DNA from: Nitrospinaceae bacterium
GTDB lineage: Bacteria; UBA8248
Assembly (NCBI GenBank): GCA_018669005.1
Contig: JABJAL010000020.1
Coordinates: 3,117-67,116, forward strand
Direction of reading: 5' to 3'
Length of the DNA: 64,000 nt
Numbering within the stretch: the first letter of the stretch is position 1; every line of letters begins with the position of its first letter. The notes beneath the pieces were generated by a model, which searched no databases, had not been told where the DNA came from, and worked only from the letters and a program-made list of their open reading frames with translations. This document shows positions 5,481-54,128 of the stretch, in pieces. The position numbers and the translations under genes were made by a program.

Positions 5481-5936
5481 ATGAAATGGTGGATGATTCT
5501 ATTAGGCGCAATCATCGTCGGCAGCATCACCTTTTTGGGGAGTCCGTCAAATTCCACGGGCAATGAGATTACAGTTTACAAGAGCCCAACGTGAGGATGC
5601 TGTTCGGGGTGGGTGGGTCACCTACAATCAAAAGGCTTCAAAGTCACGACAAACAACGTTTCCAATAAACAGCTCAGAGTCCTCAAACAGGAGCTTGGGG
5701 TCCCCTCTCGACTGCAATCATGCCACACCGGGATGATCGGCAAATACATTATCGAGGGACATGTGCCGGGCGATGTCATTCTCAAATTCTTGAAGGAAAA
5801 ACCCGAGTTCGCTGGCCTTGGGGTGCCCGGCATGCCGCCCGGCTCGCCGGGGATGGGGAGCAAAGGCCGGCCCTATACCGTATTCAGTTTTGATAAAATT
5901 GGCGGTGTTAAGCCCTACCAGCAGATAAATCCCTAG
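5481..5936 (+). CDS. copG: CopG/DUF411 copper-binding protein with in-frame TGA (candidate selenocysteine) at 5592..5594
   Basis: ATG 5481 (alternative GTG 5466 with AGGAGC 5 nt upstream) is in frame through TGA 5592-5594 with the ORF 5613..5936. The translation MKWWMILLGAIIVGSITFLGS...ITVYKSPT-U-GCCSGWVGHL...SCHTG...EGHVP...GVPGMPPGSPGM matches DUF411/CopG. The conserved columns are VYKSPTCGCCxxW, SCHT, EGHVP and PGMPxGSPGM. The TGA sits on Cys1 of CxCC. Confidence 0.55.
5592..5594 (+). other. In-frame UGA codon, putative Sec codon of CopG
   Basis: It is in frame with the upstream ATG/GTG and the downstream ORF, and its position equals the first Cys of the CopG CxCC motif. Confidence 0.5.
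5609..5625 (+). other. Candidate bacterial SECIS hairpin (7-bp stem, apical GGU/GGGUC loop) starting 15 nt after UGA
   Basis: GUGGGUG-GGU-CACCUAC forms the pairs G5609-C5625, U-A, G-U, G-C, G-C, U-A and G-C. The apical loop contains G and U 22-24 nt downstream of the UGA. Confidence 0.4.
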
Positions 5937-27885: not shown

Positions 27886-28434
27886 TTATTTCAGGGGATT
27901 TTCTTTTCCATCGGGAATTTCCACCTGGCAGGCGTTCAGCGTCATCGACACGCCTGTGTAGTGACCGATGAGTCCGATTACGTCGATCACACCATTTTGA
28001 CCGAACTGATCGAGGGCCTTTTGAAAAACGGCGTCACTCACTTCGTGAGTCTCATGCAGCGCGGTGCAAAAATCATAGAGCGCCTCCTCATCGGGCTGCA
28101 TGTTCTCGGGTCGCCGACTCTCGGAGATCGCTTTGATAATCTCGGGGTCAAGGCCGCCCTTCAGGGCATGAGGCTCATGAGCGAACCACTCGTATTGCGC
28201 CTTCCAGAAACGCGCTGTGATCAATATCGCCATTTCGCTAAGGCGCGGGGACAAGGCGCTATCGTAGCGCAGGAACCCCCCCACCTTTTCGAGAACATCG
28301 AGATAACCCGCGCTGTGGACCCACATATGAAAAGGCCCCCGAAATCCGCCGCGCTTGCCCGAAGTGATCCGGTCGTGAATTTTCCGTTGCTTGTCGCTGT
28401 ATTCATCAACTGACATAACTGGTAAACGTGACAT
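27886..28434 (-). CDS. Carboxymuconolactone decarboxylase (CMD/AhpD-like) family protein
   Basis: ~180 aa with an all-helical CMD pattern. Confidence 0.65.
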   Translation of the reverse strand: MSRLPVMSVDEYSDKQRKIHDRITSGKRGGFRGPFHMWVHSAGYLDVLEKVGGFLRYDSALSPRLSEMAILITARFWKAQYEWFAHEPHALKGGLDPEIIKAISESRRPENMQPDEEALYDFCTALHETHEVSDAVFQKALDQFGQNGVIDVIGLIGHYTGVSMTLNACQVEIPDGKENPLK

Positions 28435-28998: not shown

Positions 28999-29403
28999 TT
29001 ACTCGGGCGCCTCCCAGCCTTCGGCTTTTAGCTCCTCCATCGCCTCTAGCATGCAGGTGACGCCGTAGGTCAGCACCTTGGCCCCGCAAGGATTCACGCA
29101 CACCATCAGCGCCTCGCCAATCTCCTCGGGCTTAAGCCCGAGTTGCAAACCCTTTTTAAGGTGTTGGCGGAGGTGGGGCTGGTTATGGGGGTTCGAGCCC
29201 GCCACGGCGAGAGCGAGAATGTGAAACAGCTCGTGCATCCTCTCATCAAAGAGACGGTCTTTTTCGCGGATAACTTCGTCCAGATTGAGAAGCGCCTCCA
29301 TGTAGTCTGGAAATTTTTCTGCAATAAACTCGTGGGCCGGATAGCGCCTGCCGCGTTTTGCGGCGATTCTATCGGCGAGTGATTTAGCGCTCTCAGTGTT
29401 CAT
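28999..29403 (-). CDS. Carboxymuconolactone decarboxylase family protein (AhpD-like core)
   Basis: 134 aa with CMD-domain helices. Confidence 0.7.
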   Translation of the reverse strand: MNTESAKSLADRIAAKRGRRYPAHEFIAEKFPDYMEALLNLDEVIREKDRLFDERMHELFHILALAVAGSNPHNQPHLRQHLKKGLQLGLKPEEIGEALMVCVNPCGAKVLTYGVTCMLEAMEELKAEGWEAPE

Positions 29404-30545: not shown

Positions 30546-31478
30546 ATGAGCTACCAGAGGAAATTTCGCCTGATCACCCGCCATGACTTTGACGGCCTGG
30601 TAGGTGCGGTTCTTCTTAAAGAACTCGGAATGATCGATGAAATTGAATTCGCCCATCCCAAGGACATGCAAGATGGCAAGGTGAATGTCAGCGACCGCGA
30701 CATCATCACGAACCTTCCTTATACAGAAGGCGCCTACCTCGTTTTTGATCACCATCTAAGCGAGGCAAATCGCGTACCATCGAAGGGAAACTACATATTC
30801 GACCCAAATGCGCCATCAGCCGCCCAGGTGGTGTACGACCACTTTGGGGCAGAGTCCGTGTTTCCGGGCTATGTGCAAGAGATGCTCGCGGCCGTCAACA
30901 AGACGGACTCGGGTCTTTTTACGCGTGAAGAAATACTGCGTCCGCGCGGCTGGATACTTCTTCATTTCTTGCTCGACCCCAGAACCGGACTTGGGCGATT
31001 CAGGAATTTTGAGAAAACCGACCAGGCGCTAATGCTAAATCTGACAGACAATTGCCGCAAACAACCTATCGAGCAGGTGATGAATCATTTTGACGTAACC
31101 GAGCGCTCGGATCGCTACTTCGTTCTTGAGGAGAAATTCAAGGAGCAACTTGAGTCCTGTGCACGCCACAACGAAAAAACGCTTGTAATCGATCTTCGGG
31201 AGCAGGATGTAATCTTTGCGGGAAACCGCTTTTGGCCCTATGTCCTGTTTCCCGAGAGCAACATTTCGATTCATGTCATTTGGGGCCAGGGGAAAAAGAA
31301 CACAGTATTTGCTGTTGGAAAATCCATTTTTGATAGGAGCTCCCCATATAATATCGGGGTGCGAATGTTTGAGCGGGGCGGCGGCGGCCATGAGGCGGCC
31401 GGGACCTGCCAGGTCCCCAACGAGAGGGCAGATGAAATCCTGGAAGAAATTATCCGGGAAATATCCTCAACTAGCTGA
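30546..31478 (+). CDS. DHH family phosphoesterase (NrnA-like bifunctional oligoribonuclease/pAp phosphatase)
   Basis: The DHH motif is VFDHHLS, there are D..D metal ligands, and the DHHA1 motif is GGGGHEAAG. Confidence 0.75.
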   Translation: MSYQRKFRLITRHDFDGLVGAVLLKELGMIDEIEFAHPKDMQDGKVNVSDRDIITNLPYTEGAYLVFDHHLSEANRVPSKGNYIFDPNAPSAAQVVYDHFGAESVFPGYVQEMLAAVNKTDSGLFTREEILRPRGWILLHFLLDPRTGLGRFRNFEKTDQALMLNLTDNCRKQPIEQVMNHFDVTERSDRYFVLEEKFKEQLESCARHNEKTLVIDLREQDVIFAGNRFWPYVLFPESNISIHVIWGQGKKNTVFAVGKSIFDRSSPYNIGVRMFERGGGGHEAAGTCQVPNERADEILEEIIREISSTS

Positions 31479-31572
31479 AATCAAACCCAAAACACCACAT
31501 TTCATTTCCCTTGAAACACACTTTTCATCAACATGAAATTTCAATTCCCAGCTCAGATTCCATAAAAAAAAA

Positions 31573-31595
31573 GAGCGGGGCTCGGCGCCCCACTC
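31573..31595 (-). terminator. Rho-independent terminator on the minus strand
   Basis: GAGUGGGGCGCCGAGCCCCGCUC is followed by U9 (the plus-strand A-run at 31564-31572). Confidence 0.6.
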
Positions 31596-31946
31596 GGTGG
31601 CCAGGAAGGTTGTAAGGGAGGATTTGAGAAAAAATCTTGAGAACTACTTGGCAGGGTCCTAGGTGAGCGTTGACCACTGACAAGAATCCTAACAAACACC
31701 CCTTTTCAATATGTCTAGATCTTGTCATGGACATGTAATGAAGTAGTAATTTCCCCAATATTTGGCACCAAATATCACTTACCCCCTAAAACAAATGATG
31801 TTTTCAGGCATTGGGTTAAAGTATTTTATGTCTTGATTTCCACCTCATTTTGTATCAGGATTACTTAAACAATAAATCCGCCCAATATAAAAATTGCTGA
31901 TCGCACCTTTGCGTACCCTTTTTCCGCGCCCGGAAAGAGCCGCGAG

Positions 31947-42781: not shown

Positions 42782-42926
42782 GTCTCGGGCTCCTATAATT
42801 GGGTCAGTCGAAAATTTTATTTAGTCCGATTATCATAAAGGAAGTTGGAGCCATCGGGAACCAGGACGGGCCTGATTAAGATGGTTTTACGAAATCGCCA
42901 TAAAACAGATATAAGGAGAAACGAAG

Positions 42927-43580
42927 ATGGCAAGAGTTCCGCTGCTAACCCCCGAGGATGCCCAAGGAGAGGTAGCGCGCACCTTCGAGATATTTGGCAA
43001 ATTCCAGAAGCGCAATGTCCACTCCGTGCGCGCAACGGCCAACTCGCCGTTTCTCGCCCGGATTTTCTACCCCCTCGTACAGACCTTGATGCGCGAGGGC
43101 CTGGGGACCGTCCTCTCCTCAAAGCTCAAGGAGATTGCCACCATCAAGACCAGCCAGCTAAACGGCTGCGACTACTGACTTCTCCACAACACCATGCTCG
43201 GCCGGGCGCTGGGCATCACCGATGAAATGGTCGAGGCCATTGGTTCCGATAACTATATGGACTCGCCCCTGCTCACTGATCGTGAAAAGGCCACCGTCCT
43301 ATGGGCCGAACACGTCACCCTCAACACAGCCAAACACCGCGACGACATCGCCGCCGAGGTGCAAAAACATTTCTCCGACCAAGAGTTTGTCGAGCTCACC
43401 TTCGTGACCAGCTACTTCAACATGCGTAACCGCTACCACGATTCGCTCCAGCTACCCCTCGATGAGGTCGAAGTTGCCGGGGACATCAGTCGCCTCCGGC
43501 CGGATCCAGACAAACTCAAATCATTTCTGCAAAATATTCTCGACAACTGGCCCGACAAATTCCCCGAGCCAAACGATTAA
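42927..43580 (+). CDS. AhpD-like / carboxymuconolactone-decarboxylase family selenoprotein (in-frame TGA at 43176..43178, CxxU motif)
   Basis: The ORFs 42927..43178 and 43194..43580 share one frame and are joined by the single TGA. The context ...QLNGCDY-U-LLHNT equals the CMD/AhpD C-x-x-C-x-x-H catalytic motif, with Cys2 replaced by U. Confidence 0.65.
43194..43216 (+). other. Candidate bacterial SECIS hairpin (9-bp stem incl. 2 G-U pairs, CGGGC loop) starting 15 nt after UGA
   Basis: AUGCUCGGC-CGGGC-GCUGGGCAU. Confidence 0.45.
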
Positions 43581-43622: not shown

Positions 43623-44339
43623 ATGGACCGAGGCATTTGGGCAATCTGGTACGATCTTCCCGAAGAGGGACGCGAGGAATATCTCGCCTGGCTTCATGAA
43701 GTGCACCTCCCCGCGGCTCTCAAGCGGCCCGGCTACCTATGGGCGGCCCATGTCGAAAATATCTGGGACGAGGCGCATGAAGCCCATAAAGCCAAAGTCC
43801 TCACCTGGACCGACGATCCCGCCATACCCACCGGAAACGACTACCTCCTCCTGTTCGGAGCCGAACTCCCCACCACTTTCCTCGACCCCAGCCCCGCCCA
43901 ACTCGCCGAGAAATGGGGCAGCGATGAGCGTGAAATGCTCACCCGGCGGATCGGCGCGCGCCAGTGCATCTTCATGGAGCGCGACCGCATCGAGGGCTAC
44001 GAGGTTAGCACCCGTGCGCCCGGCATCACGCCCGGCCCCGCCATCCAGGTCGGCACATTCAACACCCCTCTAGAGTACGAAGAAGAACTCGGCTCGTGGT
44101 ACTCCCAGGTGCGTATGCCGCGCCTGACGAAAATGGATGGTTGCATCGGAGCGCGAAATCTCATTTCGGTCGCCGGATGGGCCCATCATGCAATCATGTA
44201 CGAATGGACTTCCATCGAATCGCTACAAAAGAATTTCACCACTGAGGGCACGCCGCGCTCAAGAGAGGCTGTGAATAACCTCGTCCACGCACCGAAATCG
44301 CCCACCCTGGGACAGCGAATCTGGCCGCCGGTGGAATAA
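43623..44339 (+). CDS. Hypothetical protein (238 aa)
   Basis: An ORF with good coding potential and no confident family. Confidence 0.45.
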   Translation: MDRGIWAIWYDLPEEGREEYLAWLHEVHLPAALKRPGYLWAAHVENIWDEAHEAHKAKVLTWTDDPAIPTGNDYLLLFGAELPTTFLDPSPAQLAEKWGSDEREMLTRRIGARQCIFMERDRIEGYEVSTRAPGITPGPAIQVGTFNTPLEYEEELGSWYSQVRMPRLTKMDGCIGARNLISVAGWAHHAIMYEWTSIESLQKNFTTEGTPRSREAVNNLVHAPKSPTLGQRIWPPVE

Positions 44340-44376: not shown

Positions 44377-45384
44377 TTGATCATCGACCATCACGCACAC
44401 ATCGTCCCGGAAGGGATTCTGGAAGACCTTCGCGCCGGAAAATACGCACCCATCCTACGCATCGAGCAGGGCGAGAAATGGGAAACCCTCGTCCGCGAAG
44501 ATGAACTCTCCAGCAAGGTTCGCCAGACCCAGAATCGCATCCCGCCCGAGGCAGTCGATCCCGAGATTCGCCTCTCGGACATGAAAAAGATGGACATCGA
44601 CCACCAGGTTCTCTCGGCCATTACCGGAATGACATTTTATCCTTTAGAGGCCGGAATGGCGGGAGAGATCGCCGCCTCGCAGAATGAGGGCCTCGCCGCC
44701 CTTGTCGATAAATACCCCGACAAGTTCAGCTGTATCGCCGCCGTCCCGCTGCAAGACCCGCCCGCCGCCGCCGCCGAGCTTGATCGCGCGGTAAAACTTG
44801 GCCACAAGGGCGTAAAAATTGGCACGAACATCCGGGGGGAAAACCTCGACGATCCGGCGCTGGATGTTTTCTGGGACAAGGTAGTCTCACTCGACGTTCC
44901 GATTCTGCTTCATCCGGGCGACATCATTGGCCGGGAAAATCGGATGAAGGACTACTACCTCCACAACCTAATCTCGAACCCGCTCGACACCACCATCGCC
45001 GCCGCCTGCCTGATGTTCGGCGGGGTTTTTGACCGGTTTCCGAATCTCAAGATCATTCTTGCCCATCTGGGCGGCTTCACCCCGTGGATCAGGGGCCGCT
45101 GGGATCACGGATGGGAAGTGCGCGGGGAGCCGAGGGCCAAAGGCGCTAAATCGCCCGATGAATATCTATCGAAATTTTATTACGACACCGTGATTCACAA
45201 TGCCGATTGCCTGGAGTTTGCCGTCAAAACCATTGGCGCGGATCAGATACTCTACGGCACCGACGCCCCCTGGGACGTGGGCGACCTGGGCCCCGCGCGG
45301 GAGGTTCCCGGCCTCTCGGGCCTCTCCCCAGAAGATCAGGAGAAAATCCTCTCGGGCAACGCGAAGAAGCTTTTTAAGATTTAG
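44377..45384 (+). CDS. Amidohydrolase-2 (ACMSD-like metal-dependent hydrolase/decarboxylase) family protein
   Basis: The N-terminal HxH motif is IIDHHAHIVPE, with a TIM-barrel metal-ligand pattern. The start is TTG. Confidence 0.75.
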   Translation: MIIDHHAHIVPEGILEDLRAGKYAPILRIEQGEKWETLVREDELSSKVRQTQNRIPPEAVDPEIRLSDMKKMDIDHQVLSAITGMTFYPLEAGMAGEIAASQNEGLAALVDKYPDKFSCIAAVPLQDPPAAAAELDRAVKLGHKGVKIGTNIRGENLDDPALDVFWDKVVSLDVPILLHPGDIIGRENRMKDYYLHNLISNPLDTTIAAACLMFGGVFDRFPNLKIILAHLGGFTPWIRGRWDHGWEVRGEPRAKGAKSPDEYLSKFYYDTVIHNADCLEFAVKTIGADQILYGTDAPWDVGDLGPAREVPGLSGLSPEDQEKILSGNAKKLFKI

Positions 45385-45560
45385 GTGAAGAACTCTGAAG
45401 ATGGAAGGCAAGAGAACCAACGATGGCACCAAGTGACCGAGACGACCCGCGTGATATTCGCTATATGTCCGAAGCCGAACTAGCGGCAGAACTCTCCGTT
45501 TAGCAAAAATGCGCCCCCGGGGCGACGCATAGAGGGCGGCGATGCACCGGGGGTGAACGG

Positions 45561-46442
45561 CTAGAAAATGCGCCAGGAGATGATTCCCACTCCGAGGACG
45601 ATGAGCAAGGTGCCCGCGACGATGATGAACGTCACGCGCTCGTCCTCCTTGAGCACAAACCGGCTCAGCAGCAATGAAAACAGCGGCGCCGTCGCCGAGA
45701 GCGGGGTCACGATGGTCAGATCCCCGTAGCTGAGCCCGACAAAAAGAAAAAACATCGCGAGCGCGTTAATCGCCCCGCTCGCCGTGTAAAAGCGCCAGGC
45801 CTCCGGGCGGTCGAGCTGAGGCCGCTGGCCGGCGGGCAATAGCCGCGCGAGCAGGGCGAGAAACACCATCCCCGAGGCGCTCATCACCGTGATCGCCATC
45901 AGGGGCGAGCCCACCATCTCGACCCCCGCTTTGCGGAAAACGAGGGAGGTCGAGAACATCATCACCCCCAGAATCGGAATCCACAGGTGGCCCCGGCTCC
46001 AGCTTTTATCGCCTGCCTTTTTGTGGGTGATGACAATGCAGCCCAGCACGATGAGAAACGTGCCCGCCCAGATAAACGGCCCGGGCCGCTCGCCCAGCAT
46101 CCCCACCCCGAAGATCGCCGCGAATAGGGGCATCGTCGAGAGCAGCGGCATCGCCCGCGCCACCCCCAGGTGGTGAATCGCCGAGAAGTAGAGCACCCGC
46201 GCGATGGCCGGGCCCAGCAATCCCCCCGCCGCGAGGAGCACCCACACCCTCGGGTTCCACCAGCCGGGCTCCCAGAGCGCCCAACACAGCGCCGCCAGCG
46301 GCGGCACCGTCACCATAAGCCCGATCAAAACACCCGTGACCGCGTTGGCGTGGTGGCCCCCCCGCCGCACGATTACCGAGAACGTTCCCGTGGACATCGC
46401 CGTGAAGATCGAGAACATCCCCGCCAGCGCCGTCTCGTTCAT
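45561..46442 (-). CDS. DMT (EamA-like) family transporter
   Basis: 10 TM helices with two EamA-like halves. Confidence 0.65.
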   Translation of the reverse strand: MNETALAGMFSIFTAMSTGTFSVIVRRGGHHANAVTGVLIGLMVTVPPLAALCWALWEPGWWNPRVWVLLAAGGLLGPAIARVLYFSAIHHLGVARAMPLLSTMPLFAAIFGVGMLGERPGPFIWAGTFLIVLGCIVITHKKAGDKSWSRGHLWIPILGVMMFSTSLVFRKAGVEMVGSPLMAITVMSASGMVFLALLARLLPAGQRPQLDRPEAWRFYTASGAINALAMFFLFVGLSYGDLTIVTPLSATAPLFSLLLSRFVLKEDERVTFIIVAGTLLIVLGVGIISWRIF

Positions 46443-46548
46443 GAATTTTGTGTCATGGATAGGTCCCGGAAAAGGAGAGCTACTAGAAGGGCATTTTACC
46501 ACTGATGTGGGTTATACTAGTTAGCCTTTCATCATGAATATCAAAATC

Positions 46549-47772
46549 TCACTTCACAACGTGAATCTCTCGTATCGGGTATTTCTGAAAATTCTCGGCA
46601 CCATTATCAGTGACGAGGCAGACGTCCCCTAGCCAGATGCCCATTTTCTCATCCTCCGTCGAGGGCCAGCCCGTCACGCTGAGACAGGTATTTCTCCGGA
46701 ATACGAAATCGGGGTCCGTCACGGTGTCCCCCGCGCCCCGCACATCGGGGGGCTCGTTCCAGGTGGACCAGCCGGTAATGCTGGTCTTGGCCTTGTAGCC
46801 CGCCTTTTGGGTGTCGTCTAGACAAATTGATGTGAGATCCCCGACCCGGACCCCCGGCTTGATGGCCGCATGAAGATCGTGACTGGTCTTGGTCCCTAGT
46901 TGAAAAAGTTTTTCGTACTCAGGGGTGGGGTCGCCCATGAAGAAAGTCCCCCAAATTTTTCCGTAGTAGCCGCCGATGCCCGCCGATACTTCTGTCATCA
47001 CCACATCGCCCATTTCGATGGGCGTGGTGAGTGGATAGTAATGAGGGTAATCCATGTCGGGATCGCTCATCGGGGTGCGGCCCACGTGGCCCAGCGTCAG
47101 CCGGGCGTCCATGCCCAGCGCGGTTTGGCCCATGAGTTTATACAGATCGCAGGGACGAACTCCCGGGCGCGCCGCCGTCACCATGACATCGTAGACGGCG
47201 TCGGTGACGGCCGCCGACCGGCGCATGCGCTCGATTTCCTCCTCGCTCTTCGGCAGGCGAAGGTTCTCATACCAATTGGTAACAACCTCGAATTCGGCTG
47301 TGGGAAGTGCCCCAGTGATGAGCACATGCGCCTCGTGGGGCAAATTGATATTCAGCCAGCCCGTGTCGCCGACGATTCCGATACGCTTATTTTCAAGCCC
47401 GAGTTCTTTGAGGCGCTCGGCCACCGGGCCCGCGGAACCGCCCATGCCGCCTGTGCGCGTGAACATGCCGCCGGGCCTGACGTCCTTTATGACCGAGTTG
47501 TCACGAATATTTTTGACCTGGTTCGAACTCATGATAAACATGGTCGGGTCCTCGTTTAGGGGAAATACGAGGTAGGTCTGGCTCCACGAGGCCACACTGG
47601 TGAGGTAGACTAGGTTCGTCTGGCCGGGCTCCATGCCCATACCCCGACTGACGCCGTAGACGAGGAGGCAGTCAAGACCCTCAGCCGCCATGCCCTCACG
47701 GATGAGCGTGTAGCGTCTTTGATATTCTTCCTCGGAAAACCAGGGCCAAAAATAATTTGGACACTCGGCCAT
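46549..47772 (-). CDS. M24 family metallopeptidase (creatinase/Xaa-Pro aminopeptidase-like)
   Basis: A creatinase-like N-domain plus a pita-bread fold with a metal-ligand pattern. Confidence 0.75.
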   Translation of the reverse strand: MAECPNYFWPWFSEEEYQRRYTLIREGMAAEGLDCLLVYGVSRGMGMEPGQTNLVYLTSVASWSQTYLVFPLNEDPTMFIMSSNQVKNIRDNSVIKDVRPGGMFTRTGGMGGSAGPVAERLKELGLENKRIGIVGDTGWLNINLPHEAHVLITGALPTAEFEVVTNWYENLRLPKSEEEIERMRRSAAVTDAVYDVMVTAARPGVRPCDLYKLMGQTALGMDARLTLGHVGRTPMSDPDMDYPHYYPLTTPIEMGDVVMTEVSAGIGGYYGKIWGTFFMGDPTPEYEKLFQLGTKTSHDLHAAIKPGVRVGDLTSICLDDTQKAGYKAKTSITGWSTWNEPPDVRGAGDTVTDPDFVFRRNTCLSVTGWPSTEDEKMGIWLGDVCLVTDNGAENFQKYPIREIHVVK

Positions 47773-47829
47773 ACTCTTCTCCTTATTAAAAAAATGAATG
47801 TTCGCAGGAAAATTCGAAGCCCGTTGAAA

Positions 47830-49269
47830 TTAATTGTTGCCAGAAGCTCTCTCAGGGGTCGGCGTCGCGCCGGCGGGCTGGTTCATGATGGCATCGCGGC
47901 CACCATGCCGCTCGACCAGTGCCGCCTGGTCCGCCTTCGCCTGCTGATCCACCTCTTCGGGATCGAGAATTTCTCTGAGTTCCGCCTCCATCTCCTTGAG
48001 CGTCGCCTGATGCTCAGGGCTCGATGAGAGATTATTCAACTCCTCGGGGTCGGCCTCGAGATCAAAAAGCTCGGGCTCGTAATTCACATAGTAATTAAAT
48101 TTAAACTTCCCGCGGCGAATCATAAATGAGCCGGTATCGGCACCGGCGGCATGGTATTCGCTGAAGACCACCCGATCCGGGTTATCGGGCCCTTGAACGA
48201 AACCGTAAAGGGATTCACCCGGAAGCGAGGTGTCATAATCATCGAGTTCGACCCCAACCGCCTCAAGAATTGTCGGATAAAAATCGGCGAGTGACACCGG
48301 GGTCGAAACCACCTTTCCCTCGGGAACATCCGGCCCGGATAATATGAGCGGGATGGCGGCGGATTCCTCATACATCGTCCCCTTGCCCCAGGTGCCCCGG
48401 GCGCCCAGATTCTCGCCGTGATCCGAGACGTAGACAATGCGGGTGTTATCTGCTTGACCCGATTTTTCGAGGCTATCGAGCACGAGGCCGATGTTGTGAT
48501 CAAGGAACGTGCAGAGACCAAAATATGAGGCGATGGCGATTCGGCGCTTTTCGTCGTCAAAGTAATAGTCTGAGTCAATGCAATTTCTGAACGCATCGAC
48601 CCAAGGGTGGCGCTCGCCTTCCCTGGCCGGATGCATCTTGGGCATCGGAATCTCATCCACCGGATACATGTCATAAAACTCTTGCGGCGCCTTCATCGGA
48701 AAATGGGGGCTCACCATCGAGACGAACGTCATCCAGGGCCTGTCTGTTTGCGTGGGCGCCACGTTCTCGAGCCAGTGGCAGGATTTCTCTACAATATCGA
48801 GATCGTAGTTCGAATAGCTCGTTGGCCCGCCTCCAATCTCGCGGGCAAGCGCCTTGGCGCCCTGCACCGGCAGTGGGTCACGCACCGAGCCCGGCAGGCT
48901 GCCCACCCCCTCGCGCACGTGCATGGGCACCACCTGCTCATCGAAACCCGTGGGGTCCTCGGTGTTGCGGTAGTGGAGCTTTCCGATGGATATGACGGGA
49001 ACATCATTGTCCTGAAGACGGTGCCCCCAGCTTGGCACCTCTCCCATATAGGGATGCGCGTTGTCCCAGTTTCCAATTTCGTGGATGTAGCGCCCGGTAG
49101 CGAATCCGGCGCGCGCCGGCGTGCAAATGGGACAGTTCGTGTAGGCGTTCTCAAAGCGAGTGCCCGAGGCAGCTAGCCGGTCGATGTTCGGCGTTTTCAC
49201 GATCGGATGACCGTAGCAGCCCGACGCCTTGACGCTGTGCTCATCCGACATGATGAAGAGCAGATTCAT
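47830..49269 (-). CDS. Sulfatase (Cys-type arylsulfatase family)
   Basis: The motif is CPICTPARAGFATGRY (C-x-P-x-R formylglycine motif), with MSDEHS metal ligands. Confidence 0.85.
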   Translation of the reverse strand: MNLLFIMSDEHSVKASGCYGHPIVKTPNIDRLAASGTRFENAYTNCPICTPARAGFATGRYIHEIGNWDNAHPYMGEVPSWGHRLQDNDVPVISIGKLHYRNTEDPTGFDEQVVPMHVREGVGSLPGSVRDPLPVQGAKALAREIGGGPTSYSNYDLDIVEKSCHWLENVAPTQTDRPWMTFVSMVSPHFPMKAPQEFYDMYPVDEIPMPKMHPAREGERHPWVDAFRNCIDSDYYFDDEKRRIAIASYFGLCTFLDHNIGLVLDSLEKSGQADNTRIVYVSDHGENLGARGTWGKGTMYEESAAIPLILSGPDVPEGKVVSTPVSLADFYPTILEAVGVELDDYDTSLPGESLYGFVQGPDNPDRVVFSEYHAAGADTGSFMIRRGKFKFNYYVNYEPELFDLEADPEELNNLSSSPEHQATLKEMEAELREILDPEEVDQQAKADQAALVERHGGRDAIMNQPAGATPTPERASGNN

Positions 49270-49425
49270 TGGCTCCAAAATAATCCCTCCAACCAGCTAA
49301 AAGATACCGCACCCTTGAACACACCAAAAACAGCCCTTTTCTTGCGGCATAAAACAACAAACCGGTTGCAACCGCCCGGCTCATCGAAATGAGAATTATC
49401 TAACTCAAACAATCCCCATTATTCT

Positions 49426-49845
49426 TCAATCTTTCAGTTCAATGCGAACGCCCTCGAAAGGCCGAGTATCGATATTCTCGACCGCGTGGATGCCCTCGGG
49501 CTCTATCCAGTGGGGCACCCCTTCCCGCCTCCCGCCGGTGCGCGGGGTGGAGGAGCCGTCCTCAAGATAATAATTAACCTCCGGAAAGCTATTGATGATG
49601 AAAACACTCGACCACCTATGGGTGTGCATATTCTCGCGCTCGCCCGGCTTCACCAGGACATTAACCACCCGGACCTTATCGTTTTCAAAAACCACTTCGT
49701 GATGCTCGGGCGCGGCGATAACCGCGTCATAATTCTCGGGCGTGCCTAGAATGAATGGCGGCCTCCCGGGCCTGTCGTCTTTTGTAGCCGATTCTTCTCC
49801 CAAAATACTCCCCTTTTTTAAAATCTTCCCCCCCGTGGGCACCAT
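49426..49845 (-). CDS. Cupin-like hypothetical protein
   Basis: HTHRW and HAVEN motifs. The start is uncertain. Confidence 0.4.
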   Translation of the reverse strand: MVPTGGKILKKGSILGEESATKDDRPGRPPFILGTPENYDAVIAAPEHHEVVFENDKVRVVNVLVKPGERENMHTHRWSSVFIINSFPEVNYYLEDGSSTPRTGGRREGVPHWIEPEGIHAVENIDTRPFEGVRIELKD

Positions 49846-49897
49846 AAAAACGCCGCCAAACGTATGAAAACTATGGGACACGAGGATCAAATTGATG

Positions 49898-50737
49898 TCA
49901 GACTGAGGCACCAGCGGTGCGCGTCTCCTTGTTTACGGGGGCGCGCGAGTGGCCTATCTCATTATTCTTAGCTCGCGTTCTGAAAAGAACCGAAATTTTC
50001 TTTCCCGTCTGAACAACCTTTCGAATAATCTGATCCTGGCGACTTTTCGATATTCCCGTATAGGGCATCGCCGCCACGAGTATTGCCAGCAAATTACCAT
50101 TTGGACACAAAATGGGCGCGGCAACACCGAAGATATCGGGATAATGCTCCCCCTTACTCACGGCATAGCCCTGCTTTCGAATCCGCACCAACTCCTTTTC
50201 AACATCCTCTCTTCGCGTAATTGAATTTTCAGTGTATCGGCGCAGACCATGTTCCCGGATTAATCGATCAAGCCTATCGAAGGGCAAGTAGGCCGAGAAA
50301 AGCTTGGCCCCTGAGCCAACGAAATGCCACGTCCGCCGATTACCATGGAGCGAGTGCACACGGAGCCTGCCAGGGCTCTCGATGGTCTCGACAACCACAG
50401 TCACATCACCGTCCTCCACACGAATGGAAACGGTTGCCTGAATCTCAGAAGCCAGATTTTCAAGAAGGGGTCGCGCCTCGGGAACCAGATTGATGCGCCT
50501 TCCCGCCTCAACCCCGAGTTCAAACGCGCCAAAGCCAAGTGAATACTTGGTCGAGTCCGGACACATCTGAAGGAAACCGGCATCCACCAGGGTCTTGAGG
50601 GTGCGGTGAACCTGATTTTTATGCAGGCCCAACTCCCGGGCTATATCGCTCACCCCCCACTCAGGCTGATGCTCCTTGAAGATACCGAGTATTTCGAGCC
50701 CCCGTCTAAGGCCCTCGGAGCGATTCGCCTCTCCCAT
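49898..50737 (-). CDS. IclR family transcriptional regulator
   Basis: An N-terminal wHTH (LEILGIF...VSDIARELGLHKNQVHRTLKTL) and a C-terminal IclR effector domain. Confidence 0.8.
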   Translation of the reverse strand: MGEANRSEGLRRGLEILGIFKEHQPEWGVSDIARELGLHKNQVHRTLKTLVDAGFLQMCPDSTKYSLGFGAFELGVEAGRRINLVPEARPLLENLASEIQATVSIRVEDGDVTVVVETIESPGRLRVHSLHGNRRTWHFVGSGAKLFSAYLPFDRLDRLIREHGLRRYTENSITRREDVEKELVRIRKQGYAVSKGEHYPDIFGVAAPILCPNGNLLAILVAAMPYTGISKSRQDQIIRKVVQTGKKISVLFRTRAKNNEIGHSRAPVNKETRTAGASV

Positions 50738-51002
50738 ACCAAAACTCCTGTCATGCCGTTCACATTATGTGTACATCATCAATCTATATGTGTAAGTTCA
50801 GTTTCCGACTTCAACTACCATGAGTCAACCTATCCTCGGGCAAAATACCTTATCTTATTCAGTAACAATAACTTACGCTTCACATCTACCTACGACAGAT
50901 TCCCGGCTGTAGGATATGGTATGATAAACCATACTTATAAGGCGAGCGTCTTCGTCTCGATGTTTTCTAGCCTAATCTTTCTATTTAACGGAGACCTTAA
51001 AA

Positions 51003-53288
51003 GTGGCAGATCACGATATTCTCGGAAAAAGATATGCCCGCGATGATGGGAACGATATGGTCTCTGGTGATGCACTCTTCGTTGAGGACATCGAACCAGG
51101 CAGGCTCCTTTACGGTGCAGTGGTTCGTGCCGGTAGGCCCCATGCACGCATCCTCAACGTGGATACCGCCAAGGCCGCTCGTGCAAAGGGCGTCGTATGT
51201 GTCCTTACCGCCGAGGACATCCCCAACAATCGCTACGGACCCTCCTTTCCCGATCAACGACTCCTCTGTGATGATAAGGTGCGCTACGAGGGAGACCCCG
51301 TTGTCGCCCTTTGTGCCGAGAGTTGGGAGGAGGCCGAAGAGGCGGCCCGTCTGGTCAACGTCAAATACGAAGACCTGCCCGCCGTGCTGACCGCAGAGCA
51401 AGCCTTGGAGGAGGGCAGCCCCCTTGTCCACGAAACGCATCCCACGGGCAACCTCGTTACCGAGGGAAAAGTAATTCGGGGCGACGTTGAGGCCGGATTT
51501 GCCGAGGCCGACATCGTTGTCGAGGAGTGCTACCACTCGCAGGCGCAGGAGCATGCCTCGATAGAGCCACATCTTTGCATGGCACAGTTGGAAAGCAACG
51601 GTCGCCTGACGATCCACGTATCGACCCAAACTCCGTTTCGTATCCGGGGCGATCTGGCCAAGGTTCTTGGCCTGCCCCTCACGAAGGTTCGCGTCCTGAG
51701 CGCCACCGCTGGCGGCGCCTTCGGCGGCAAACACGAAATTATGCTTGAGGCCTTCGCCTCGATATGCGCCATGCGCACCCGGCGACCCGTGAAATTTCGC
51801 ATGTCTCGCGAGGAGGAATTCACCGCCTCGACCGTACGCCACCCCTTCAAGATGAACTACAAGACCGGTGTGACGCGGGACGGAAAGATCACCGCCGTCG
51901 AGATCAAACTGCTTCTGAACGGCGGGGCCTATGCCTCGGCAGGTGGTGGCGTGGCCGCCAAAGCGGCGCTCATGGGACCGGGCCCCTACAAGATAGACAA
52001 CATTCGCGCCGAATTCGCTCTCACCTATACCAACAACGGTTTCGCCGGCGCCGTCAGGGGATTCGGCGCCACCCAAACGTGCTACGCCTGCGAGCGCCAC
52101 ATGGACCTCATAGCACGCAAGTTGAACATGGACCCGCTTGAGCTAAGACGTCGCAACGCCATGAAAACAGGCGACCCGGCCCATAGTGGCGATGCCATCA
52201 CGAGTTGCGGACTAGGCGAGACGATGGACACCGCCACGAAGGCGGTGGACTGGGACAACATTGGTCGCGGCGCAAAATCCGCCTGCGGCACGAAACGACG
52301 GGGACGCGGAATGGCCGCGATGATTTATCCGGTTGCCGGTTTCGGCAATGCCACACCCAGCGCCGCCTTCTCCCGCGTGAACGAAGACGGCACCCTGACC
52401 GTCATCGTCGGCATCACAGACGTTGGCCAGGGCTCGAACGTTGTCCTCCGACAAGTGGCCGCAGAGGAATTAGGCATCCCGATGGAGCATGTCTCACTTA
52501 TCAACGGTGACACTTCAGTTTCTCCGTTTGATCCGGGCTCAACGGGCAGCCGCATTTCCCATCTCGGCGGCAAGGCAGTCAAAATTGCGGTAAGCAAGGT
52601 GAAAGCGCAGCTTCTAGACAAAGCCGCCGGCATGATGGAGGCCGCCCCCGAGGATTTACGTATCAGAAACAGCATGGTCTATGTCGAGGGCTCGCCAGAT
52701 CGAAAGATTCCGCTTAAAGAGGTCGCCCTAGCCTGCCACAAGGCATCCGAATTAGTTGTCAGCGAGGGCACCCACAAGTCGCAAGACCTCGGCGTGGACA
52801 AGACAACCCATCAGGGCAAGGGCTTTGAGTGCTATGTTTTCGCTACACAGTGTGCCGAGGTCGAGGTGGATATAGAAACAGGTGAATACCGCGTTCTACA
52901 TCTTGCCGCCTCGCATGACGTGGGAACCGCCATCAACCCGATGAACGTTGAAGGGCAAATAGAAGGCGGTGCGAGCATGGGCTACGGCTTGGGGCTTATG
53001 GAAGAGATCCAGATGAAGGATGGGCGTGTGCAAAACCCCTATTTCATGGATTATCACATTCCAACACCGACAGACATGCCGGAAAAATTCACCTCAATAA
53101 TTGTCCAAACCAACGAGCCAAGAGGCCCCTTCGGGGTCAAGGGCGTGGCAGAGCCATCCGTAAACCCAACGGCTCCTGCTGTTGTAAACGCGCTGTGCGA
53201 CGCCATCGGCGCGGAGATCACCGATCTTCCGGCAACGCCTGAGGCTGTTTTAAGGGCTTTGCAGAACAAAACTAAGACTATTTCGTAA
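51003..53288 (+). CDS. Xanthine dehydrogenase / aldehyde oxidase family molybdopterin-binding large subunit
   Basis: 761 aa with the Ald_Xan_dh_C and C2 pattern (GGAFGGK, the AQ..EVE active-site Glu region). Confidence 0.85.
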   Translation: MADHDILGKRYARDDGNDMVSGDALFVEDIEPGRLLYGAVVRAGRPHARILNVDTAKAARAKGVVCVLTAEDIPNNRYGPSFPDQRLLCDDKVRYEGDPVVALCAESWEEAEEAARLVNVKYEDLPAVLTAEQALEEGSPLVHETHPTGNLVTEGKVIRGDVEAGFAEADIVVEECYHSQAQEHASIEPHLCMAQLESNGRLTIHVSTQTPFRIRGDLAKVLGLPLTKVRVLSATAGGAFGGKHEIMLEAFASICAMRTRRPVKFRMSREEEFTASTVRHPFKMNYKTGVTRDGKITAVEIKLLLNGGAYASAGGGVAAKAALMGPGPYKIDNIRAEFALTYTNNGFAGAVRGFGATQTCYACERHMDLIARKLNMDPLELRRRNAMKTGDPAHSGDAITSCGLGETMDTATKAVDWDNIGRGAKSACGTKRRGRGMAAMIYPVAGFGNATPSAAFSRVNEDGTLTVIVGITDVGQGSNVVLRQVAAEELGIPMEHVSLINGDTSVSPFDPGSTGSRISHLGGKAVKIAVSKVKAQLLDKAAGMMEAAPEDLRIRNSMVYVEGSPDRKIPLKEVALACHKASELVVSEGTHKSQDLGVDKTTHQGKGFECYVFATQCAEVEVDIETGEYRVLHLAASHDVGTAINPMNVEGQIEGGASMGYGLGLMEEIQMKDGRVQNPYFMDYHIPTPTDMPEKFTSIIVQTNEPRGPFGVKGVAEPSVNPTAPAVVNALCDAIGAEITDLPATPEAVLRALQNKTKTIS

Positions 53289-53291
53289 GGA

Positions 53292-54128
53292 TTATTTGAG
53301 CGCGGGACCCACTGGCCACTCAAGGGCCGAAACGCCTATGAACCATTTGGGCTCCGGGCGATAACAGAGAAGCTTCGCCTTCGTGTCACCTGCCATAGCG
53401 GCGGCGGATAGCCAGTTTCGTAGCTCGTTTCCACCGTTTCCCCCAGCATCGATTTGCTCCTGGCTCCATCCGGCAAGGCTCTTGGCATCACCCGCCTCAA
53501 GCGGCCGGATGACCGACATGTCCCACTCTTCATCAATACGGCCAAGCTCCGGGGTGCCAATCCAATGCGCTGGCGCGCCGGTTGCCAGAACGGCCACGCG
53601 CTCCACCTTATCGTAGGCCTCAACCGCATGGCGCACGGCAATTCCGAGTTGATAGGCCCGGCGGGCCGGAGCAAGAGGCGGCGCAACGGTATTTTGCAGT
53701 ATCGGCACCAACGGAATTGCCGGGTCGCCCATCAGGACAAGCGGCGAGACTATCGAATGATCGAGATCTATTTCCTGGCACATCGCCGGATCGAAGTCGC
53801 TTTCAAGTAGCGATTCCACTAAATGTAGACCGAGATCGGGATCTCCCCTCCGGCCGCCATCCGGCTCTGGCATATACGCCTCGCTCGCCACATTACGAAA
53901 CACGGGTTGCACACCAACCGCCAGCGAGGGATGCCGATCCAGGAAAAGTGAGTGGAGGTGATCGTTTTCGAAAACGATTAGCGCCTGGGCGCCCCGATCC
54001 AGCATCGCCTTTCCGATACCCTCGTAGCAGGCGAAAACCTCATCGCGCACCTCTTGCGAAGGCTCATCATGCCGCAAAAGGAAAAGAGGGGTATGGGTAG
54101 CTGCATAAACACCGACAACCTCAGCCAT
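53292..54128 (-). CDS. ligB: Class III extradiol ring-cleavage dioxygenase, LigB family catalytic subunit
   Basis: LigB-type His/Glu ligand pattern at ~278 aa. Confidence 0.7.
   Translation of the reverse strand: MAEVVGVYAATHTPLFLLRHDEPSQEVRDEVFACYEGIGKAMLDRGAQALIVFENDHLHSLFLDRHPSLAVGVQPVFRNVASEAYMPEPDGGRRGDPDLGLHLVESLLESDFDPAMCQEIDLDHSIVSPLVLMGDPAIPLVPILQNTVAPPLAPARRAYQLGIAVRHAVEAYDKVERVAVLATGAPAHWIGTPELGRIDEEWDMSVIRPLEAGDAKSLAGWSQEQIDAGGNGGNELRNWLSAAAMAGDTKAKLLCYRPEPKWFIGVSALEWPVGPALK

Follow-up and report, generated by a model that had tools for sequence, protein, structure and literature searches.

An in-frame UGA very probably read as selenocysteine in an AhpD-like oxidoreductase gene of a Nitrospinaceae bacterium

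The stretch of DNA analyzed here, referred to below as the window, comprises 64,000 nucleotides (nt) of contig JABJAL010000020.1 (positions 3,117 to 67,116 of the forward strand) from the Nitrospinaceae bacterium assembly GCA_018669005.1. On the basis of sequence comparison, we are highly confident that positions 42927 to 43580 of this window represent one gene, encoding a 217-residue AhpD-like thiol/selenol oxidoreductase (COG2128/TIGR01926 type) in which the UGA codon at 43176-43178 would be decoded as selenocysteine (Sec, or U; residue 84). The gene belongs to the already known family of AhpD-like CxxU selenoproteins, from which it differs in detail only, and the result is biologically expected rather than surprising. 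Its main gain is a corrected annotation, with the single-selenoprotein reading restoring the catalytic motif. Public copies split the gene into pieces of 83 and 128 amino acids (aa), and GenBank entry MBT3352972.1 and its copies are 128-aa C-terminal fragments named "carboxymuconolactone decarboxylase family protein."

One reading frame across a conserved TGA

Translation of the 217 codons between 42927 and 43580 yields a single internal stop, the TGA at 43176-43178. The initial annotation had described two open reading frames (ORFs), 42927..43178 and 43194..43580, as sharing a frame and being parted only by this TGA, and had joined them into a 217-aa product reading NGC-D-Y-U-L-L-H-N across the junction. 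Both statements agree with the translation: the two starts are 267 nt (a multiple of 3) apart, and the joined product around the motif is IKTSQLNGC81-D-Y-U84-L-L-H87-NTMLGRALGITDEM. Such pairs are common by themselves, however, with 99 cases in the window of ORFs (at least 45 codons on either side) split by one TGA. The significance of the pair at 42927 to 43580 therefore lies not in the pairing of the ORFs but in the homology that runs across the TGA and in the hairpin that follows it.

That homology is apparent at the level of domains, of residues, and of predicted structure. Matches to the Pfam CMD domain (PF02627; 31.7 bits against a cutoff of 23; residues 60 to 105) and to TIGR00778, the AhpD core domain (30.3 against a cutoff of 27.8), both span the TGA. 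In an alignment with 15 full-length homologues (34 to 54% identity), C81 and H87 are invariant and the column of U84 is occupied by cysteine, so that the comparison with Cys-containing homologues, a check suggested at the outset, bears out the proposal that U replaces the second Cys of a CxxC motif. When a profile of the family was compared with the PDB, PA0269, Atu0492, D. radiodurans AhpD, and TIGR01926-type proteins were recovered with E values of 1e-13 to 1e-23. An AlphaFold2 model of the joined sequence consists of one all-helical domain (pLDDT, 90.3; pTM, 0.88), and its top 36 Foldseek matches in the PDB are all members of the AhpD/CMD family, led by D. radiodurans AhpD (6k40; TM score, 0.71/0.82), with TM scores among them reaching 0.72/0.82. 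The product is thus modeled as a single CMD/AhpD-family protein with the AhpD fold.

Within the active site, E69, C81, Y83, and U84 are in register with Glu36, Cys48, Tyr50, and Cys51 of PA0269, for which the roles of the proton-relay residues have been reported (PMC3141380). Since U84 aligns with the second Cys of the CxxC motif, both in the homologues and in PA0269 (Cys51), it corresponds to Cys133 of Mycobacterium tuberculosis AhpD. In that enzyme, the second Cys is exposed and carries out the attack on AhpC (PMC6626918, PMC3141380), which places the predicted Sec at the position of the nucleophile. The window contains two further CMD-family genes, 27886..28434 and 28999..29403, both on the minus strand, which were correctly noted before as being free of in-frame TGA codons. 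They also lack a CxxC motif and score 20.6 bits (below the cutoff of 23) and 28.4 bits, respectively, against the Pfam CMD model; neither of them is an AhpD paralogue of the redox type represented by the Sec gene.

The TGA itself is strictly conserved. Counting the window and 81 gene copies from 80 genome loci, all 82 copies carry it at the aligned codon; most of these loci come from metagenome-assembled genomes (MAGs) labeled Nitrospinota or Nitrospinaceae, and the remaining MAG labels are SAR324, Tectomicrobia, Rhodospirillales, Acidimicrobiales, and Betaproteobacteria. A further 52 TGA copies came from a metagenome scan, bringing the number of related copies to 133 (39 to 90% identity), and in the same scan TGC was encountered at the U84 codon only in three distant homologues (31 to 35% identity). 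Between the window and nine relatives, the synonymous divergence (dS) ranges from 0.45 to 2.1, and the ratio of nonsynonymous to synonymous divergence (dN/dS) is 0.07 to 0.22 on both sides of the TGA. By this measure, both halves of the gene are translated and under purifying selection, and the TGA has outlasted saturating synonymous divergence.

These data leave hardly any room for the idea that the TGA arose through faulty sequencing or assembly or through a recent mutation that inactivated the gene and left a pseudogene. The sequence is MAG derived, and a single base change suffices to convert TGC or TGT into TGA. However, five independent NCBI MAG assemblies from this organism carry the gene, TGA included, with zero mismatches; the same TGA is seen in a JGI contig, and the exact C-terminal protein recurs in 51 blocks of the genome collection. 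Furthermore, TGA is found in all relatives down to 39% identity, and the low dN/dS on both halves, at saturated dS and without any frameshift, does not fit a pseudogene. We consider an error or a pseudogene effectively refuted.

Another explanation, which we judge very improbable, is that the TGA acts as a genuine stop and that the locus consists of two genes, one for an 83-aa product and one for a 128-aa product initiated at ATG 43194. Dividing the locus in this way would cut both the catalytic motif and the Pfam domain in two, even though the gene calls in all public copies do so, the 128-aa piece carries a family name of its own in GenBank, and an ATG is indeed available 15 nt past the TGA. 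No Shine-Dalgarno-like motif was found ahead of that ATG, which speaks against independent translation of the second ORF. The full-length homologues, moreover, are single proteins with Cys at the TGA codon, and the AlphaFold model of the joined sequence is a single, confidently predicted domain. An ordinary stop would not be expected to stay TGA, never changing to TAA or TAG, in 133 other copies, and the start of the downstream fragment varies in most relatives. A protein search returned about 100 matches of 123 to 138 aa that start just past the TGA, a sign that automated gene calling cuts the gene short in many genomes.

The hairpin downstream of the UGA

Starting 15 nt past the UGA, the sequence AUGCUCGGC/CGGGC/GCUGGGCAU (43194-43216) can form a 9-bp stem with a CGGGC loop, as the initial annotation had stated, and folding of the local sequence gives this hairpin as the structure of lowest energy (-12.6 kcal/mol), both in the window and in the related loci L086 and L087. 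The published consensus for the bacterial selenocysteine insertion sequence (bSECIS) asks for a loop of 3 to 9 nt, a stem of 4 to 16 bp, a G in the first two loop positions, a distance of 16 to 37 nt between UGA and loop, and an energy of -7.5 kcal/mol or lower (PMC13188914). When the region was compared with these constraints, a check that had also been suggested beforehand, the hairpin at 43194-43216 fell within all of them: its loop measures 5 nt, with a G at loop position 2 that is followed by another G, it lies 24 nt from the UGA, and its energy is -12.0 to -12.6 kcal/mol. As a background, local hairpins were enumerated downstream of all 2012 TGA trinucleotides in the window. Any qualifying bSECIS-type hairpin was found for 5.3% of them, one of -10 kcal/mol or lower for 2.2%, and one of -12.6 kcal/mol or lower for 0.4%. 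The hairpin of the AhpD-like gene scores -12.0 in this enumeration, a stability matched downstream of about 1% of the TGAs in the window.

The hairpin is conserved among the closest relatives. In an alignment of 17 sequences of the clade (74 to 90% identity), 89.5% of the cells at 43194-43216 are paired, versus 22 to 53% in controls in which the structure was slid along the alignment, and one pair is compensatory, being U-A in 11 sequences and G-C in 4. Third codon positions are invariant inside the stem, and the third codon position in the loop varies; in the gene as a whole, third positions have a mean entropy of 0.91 bits, and only 8.7% of them are invariant. Coding constraint contributes to this conservation as well.

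All 75 distinct sequences of the wider family share a short apical hairpin, which is capped by a tetraloop of the form GG[U/C/A][C/A], mostly GGUC. Its closing pair covaries perfectly, with U-A in 43 sequences, C-G in 32, and an unpaired state in none, and this covariation couples a synonymous change in a Leu codon to a change between Gln/Lys and Arg two codons later. The SECIS of Escherichia coli fdhF is a minimal hairpin with a GGUC apical loop. The family-wide element resembles it in its GGUC tetraloop and in its short, covarying stem inside the coding sequence but differs in that the loop lies one codon farther from the UGA and in that no bulged U was identified; in the clade of the window, moreover, the loop in the family register is GGCC. 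Within this clade the family-register hairpin is weak: four sequences break the pairing, and the energy in the window is only -4.4 kcal/mol. The clade has instead the more stable hairpin described above, shifted 3 nt downstream of the family apex and with the loop CG[G/U]G[C/U]. Judging from these alignments, the RNA element appears to have been remodeled in the clade of the window, while the protein sequence L-G-R-x-L-G stayed similar.

Selenocysteine use by the organism

The window contains a second gene with the same signature, a DUF411/CopG (PF04214) copper-resistance homologue with its own in-frame TGA. Here, the TGA takes the place of the first Cys of a CxCC motif (YKSPT-U-GCCSGW), and a 7-bp hairpin with a GGU loop is located 21 nt downstream. 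The closest homologues are C-terminal fragments of 107 to 108 aa that are split at the same place, and more distant DUF411 homologues are full length and unsplit at that site. Six relatives keep the TGA in their corresponding loci, which comprise three different sequences and three genomic contexts. The 2026 selenoproteome review (PMC13188914) and the other literature searched make no mention of DUF411 proteins with selenocysteine; given the sequence pattern, DUF411/CopG may constitute an undescribed selenoprotein family. The AhpD-like gene had initially been put forward as support for reading the CopG TGA as Sec, and this support holds, as CopG shows the same exchange of Sec for Cys, a conserved TGA, and a hairpin. 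Taken together, the AhpD-like and DUF411/CopG genes show, on comparative grounds, that this Nitrospinaceae organism in all likelihood decodes UGA as Sec. In addition, the MAG FO_M_Nitrospinota_01 (GTDB phylum UBA8248), which is the source of a 79%-identical orthologue (L001) and of three paralogues, is listed in BSepDB as Sec utilizing, with 54 selenoprotein genes, among the highest counts known (PMC13326102).

Several observations weigh against the selenoprotein assignment. First, the selenium machinery was not encountered: ARAGORN detected no tRNA in the 64-kb window and hence no tRNA-Sec, Pfam scans of about 50 window ORFs revealed no SelA, SelB, or SelD domains, and a tblastn search with an approximate E. 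coli SelD query gave no match in the window or in the fetched loci. Second, part of the RNA evidence is unfavorable. The apex of the wider-family hairpin lies 21 nt past the UGA, 3 nt upstream of the apex of the hairpin at 43194-43216; the 71-nt region around the site is not more stable than shuffled sequence (z = 0.22); the global minimum-free-energy structure of the 60 nt right after the UGA does not contain the hairpin, which is lost to competing pairings; and a comparison of the entire window with Rfam at gathering thresholds yielded no match, although Rfam may not model bacterial SECIS elements within coding regions. (A long noncoding RNA match around the site at relaxed Rfam thresholds was dismissed as meaningless.) Third, the protein deviates from the curated models. 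The canonical AhpD motif is C-x-x-C-x-x-x-H, and the initial annotation had assumed that its His was kept. While a His is indeed present, the spacing did not hold: the motif reads C-x-x-U-x-x-H, with the His displaced by one residue (three instead of four after U), and the invariant H87 accordingly lies one residue earlier than His55 of PA0269. The best full-length NCBIfam alignments were those to NF053654 and TIGR01926. TIGR01926 (peroxid_rel) is aligned over residues 8 to 177 of the protein and positions 7 to 174 of the 178-position profile, with a score of 56.7 bits, below its cutoff of 81.8, and the scores against NF053654 (YciW-related [seleno]protein; 62.9 against 310) and NF041238 (AhpD_rel_CFYUT; 28.6 against 175) also remain below the cutoffs. 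By these scores, the protein would be a relative, not a trusted member, of the TIGR01926 subfamily model and would fall outside the equivalog families NF053654 and NF041238.

The absence of Sec machinery from the 64-kb window would also be compatible with decoding of the UGA without a Sec system, be it through reassignment of UGA to Trp or Gly, through a suppressor tRNA, or through near-cognate read-through with insertion of Cys or Trp, a set of options that we find hardly credible. Some JGI entries do place Trp at the Sec position, P0074 and P0079 among the database entries with W at the U84 codon. For P0079 (L175:185-781), the one of the two entries whose DNA was inspected, the codon is TGA, and the W reflects the genetic code applied by the gene caller. 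TGA is rare as a stop in the window (4 of 45 genes), a finding that might hint at reassignment; yet at least four Pfam-supported window genes end in TGA, one of these stops lying 9 nt before the start of the next gene. Since TGA thus terminates supported genes, a reassigned code is unlikely, and no other Pfam-supported gene needs read-through. Likewise, the residue aligned with the UGA in homologues is always a Cys within a redox motif, which is the signature of Sec, and a conserved, covarying hairpin at SECIS distance, as well as the cataloguing of a related MAG as Sec utilizing (PMC13326102), also speaks against a non-Sec mechanism. Decoding as Sec hence remains by far the better account of the UGA at 43176-43178.

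The scarcity of TGA stops is an observation in its own right. Among the 45 supported genes of the window (guanine-plus-cytosine content, 55.5%), 24 end in TAG, 17 in TAA, and 4 in TGA, even though TGA is the commonest of the three stop trinucleotides in the window (2016 occurrences versus 816 and 1054); tested against an expectation of 40%, this corresponds to a binomial P value of about 5e-6. In related loci of similar base composition, TGA accounts for about half of the stops, and in the orthologue clade it accounts for 63%. One rather loose possibility is a connection between this scarcity of TGA stops and extensive decoding of UGA as Sec. Other candidates for read-through in the window did not withstand inspection: neighboring ORFs in the same frame turned out to be separate genes or to have a TAA or TAG between them, small read-through ORFs located in gaps between genes gave a spurious impression, and a minus-strand candidate at 31035-31760 was ruled out as a gene.

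Predicted mechanism, known relatives, and neighboring genes

For the AhpD-like selenoprotein, we envisage that SelB carrying Sec-tRNASec would bind the hairpin at 43194-43216, or the overlapping hairpin in the family register, and deliver Sec to the UGA, with RF2 competing for the same codon. Within the protein, the selenolate of U84 would make the nucleophilic attack, in the way that Cys133 does in M. tuberculosis AhpD, on a peroxide or on an oxidized partner such as a peroxiredoxin. C81 would then resolve the adduct, giving an intramolecular selenenylsulfide to be reduced by a thiol reductant, with E69, Y83, and H87 supplying the proton relay.

That AhpD-like Sec proteins form a documented bacterial family, as the initial annotation had stated, is confirmed by the literature. 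In 2005, 27 sequences of an AhpD-like CxxU selenoprotein (COG2128) were described from the Sargasso Sea (PMC1088965); as "AhpD-like 1," the family ranked fourth in abundance among selenoprotein families, with 299 sequences, in the Global Ocean Sampling data in 2008 (PMC2398784); and the 2026 review places it under TIGR01926 (PMC13188914). With this family, the window gene shares the CMD/AhpD domain, Sec at the second position of CxxC, the existence of Cys homologues, a post-UGA hairpin with G in the apical loop, and a marine bacterial origin. Unlike that family, the subfamily of the window gene scores below the curated cutoffs and has a CxxUxxH spacing that is one residue shorter, a C-terminal extension that ends in a conserved DNWP..FPEP, and, in Nitrospinota, a conserved 238-aa neighbor. 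Within Nitrospinota, the family is very abundant, which fits the approximately 50 selenoprotein genes published for related MAGs. It has also expanded: several MAGs hold three or four paralogues per genome, tandem copies occur in five loci, and every copy has the TGA (loci L035, L099, L106, L118, and L120; contigs OZ242260.1, OZ253442.1, and CAMYJL01).

Among characterized proteins, M. tuberculosis AhpD (Cys130-x-x-Cys133; relay residues Glu118, His132, and His137) has in common with the window protein the all-helical AhpD fold and the CxxC-type active site. The window protein differs in having Sec for Cys, Tyr instead of His between the redox residues and an N-terminal location of the active site (both as in PA0269), and the His at +3 rather than +4; its gene, furthermore, has no adjacent ahpC. 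The closest solved relatives are PA0269 (2ijc, 2o4d, and 7xw1), Atu0492 (2gmy), and the TIGR01926-type structures 2pfx, 2prr, 2oyo, 3c1l, and 6k40. They share the fold (TM score, 0.5 to 0.72, normalized to the query) and have their Glu/Cys/Tyr/Cys relay residues in register with the window protein but are all Cys proteins of 145 to 197 residues, without the C-terminal extension and with only 16 to 26% identity. Finally, the debrominase Bmp8 (6ohi and 6ohj), a CMD-family reductive dehalogenase, also has the CMD fold (profile E value, 2.6e-14). Its structural similarity is lower (TM score, about 0.6; root mean square deviation, 5 to 8 Å), and our data contain no evidence for halogenated substrates of the window protein.

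The coordinates of the gene, of its RNA elements, and of the other features discussed are collected in Table 1.

Table 1. Positions in the window of the AhpD-like gene, its elements, and other features discussed
Feature	Position	Strand	Description	Basis
AhpD-like coding sequence (putative selenoprotein)	42927..43580	+	217 residues including U84; TAA stop	Translation
Shine-Dalgarno-like AAGGAG	42913..42918	+	8 nt ahead of ATG 42927	Sequence reading
In-frame TGA (predicted U84)	43176..43178	+		TGA at the aligned codon in relatives
Active-site motif C81-D-Y-U84-L-L-H87	43167..43187	+		Alignment to homologues
Candidate bacterial SECIS hairpin	43194..43216	+	9-bp stem 43194-43202/43208-43216 (2 G-U pairs); loop CGGGC, 43203-43207	
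Alternative, weaker hairpin in the family-wide register	43195..43208	+	5-bp stem 43195-43199/43204-43208; loop GGCC, 43200-43203	
DUF411/CopG (PF04214) copper-resistance homologue	~5481..5936	+	In-frame TGA at 5592-5594	
238-aa gene of unassigned function	43623..44339	+	Tandem ferredoxin-like domains; own Shine-Dalgarno-like motif	
Amidohydro_2 (ACMSD-like) gene	44377..45384	+	Third gene on the strand	Pfam, E = 9.7e-42

The 238-aa gene begins 42 nt after the AhpD-like gene, with no terminator-like site between the two, and from this arrangement they are probably cotranscribed. It adjoins the Sec gene on the downstream side throughout the orthologue clade and is found immediately upstream and on the same strand in a paralogue clade (loci L001-L013, L017, L019-L033, L041, L053, L064, and L086-L090); it is also located near the Sec gene in some Rhodospirillales loci. 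The linkage is not universal, as three distant members of the 238-aa family (L166-L168, one of them from a Chloroflexi MAG) have no AhpD-like gene nearby. In Pfam, the protein gave a weak match to DUF4286 and nothing else, and it belongs to a group of about 490 "hypothetical proteins." Its AlphaFold model (pLDDT, 92) has two domains, arranged as a tandem of ferredoxin-like folds, and Foldseek found likenesses to 2pgc, to anthrone-oxidase-like proteins and putative monooxygenases, and to sulfur oxygenase reductase.

The two genes stay together in two paralogous clades, although their order is reversed from one clade to the other, and we therefore considered a functional link, with the 238-aa protein as a candidate partner of the AhpD-like enzyme. 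We speculate, while rating the chances as rather low, that in Nitrospinota the two work as a fixed pair, representing an undescribed selenium-dependent module. The structural neighbors of the 238-aa model include cofactor-independent monooxygenases. One partner might generate or bind an oxidized intermediate (a peroxide, sulfur, or halogen species) for reduction by the selenol.

No ahpC is found beside the AhpD-like gene, from which about 10 kb separate the closest gene of the AhpC-TSA/SCO1-like type. The Amidohydro_2 gene follows the 238-aa gene in L086 and L087 as well, though not in the wider clade. From there on, the region 44377..54128 resembles a catabolic cluster, with the ACMSD-like amidohydrolase, an IclR regulator, a sulfatase, M24 peptidases, the large subunit of a molybdenum hydroxylase (Ald_Xan_dh_C/MoCoBD), and a LigB-type extradiol dioxygenase. 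The ACMSD-like, LigB, and IclR neighbors raised the possibility of a decarboxylase function for the AhpD-like protein, which was set aside in view of its redox CxxC-type motif, absent from the two CMD paralogues in the window.

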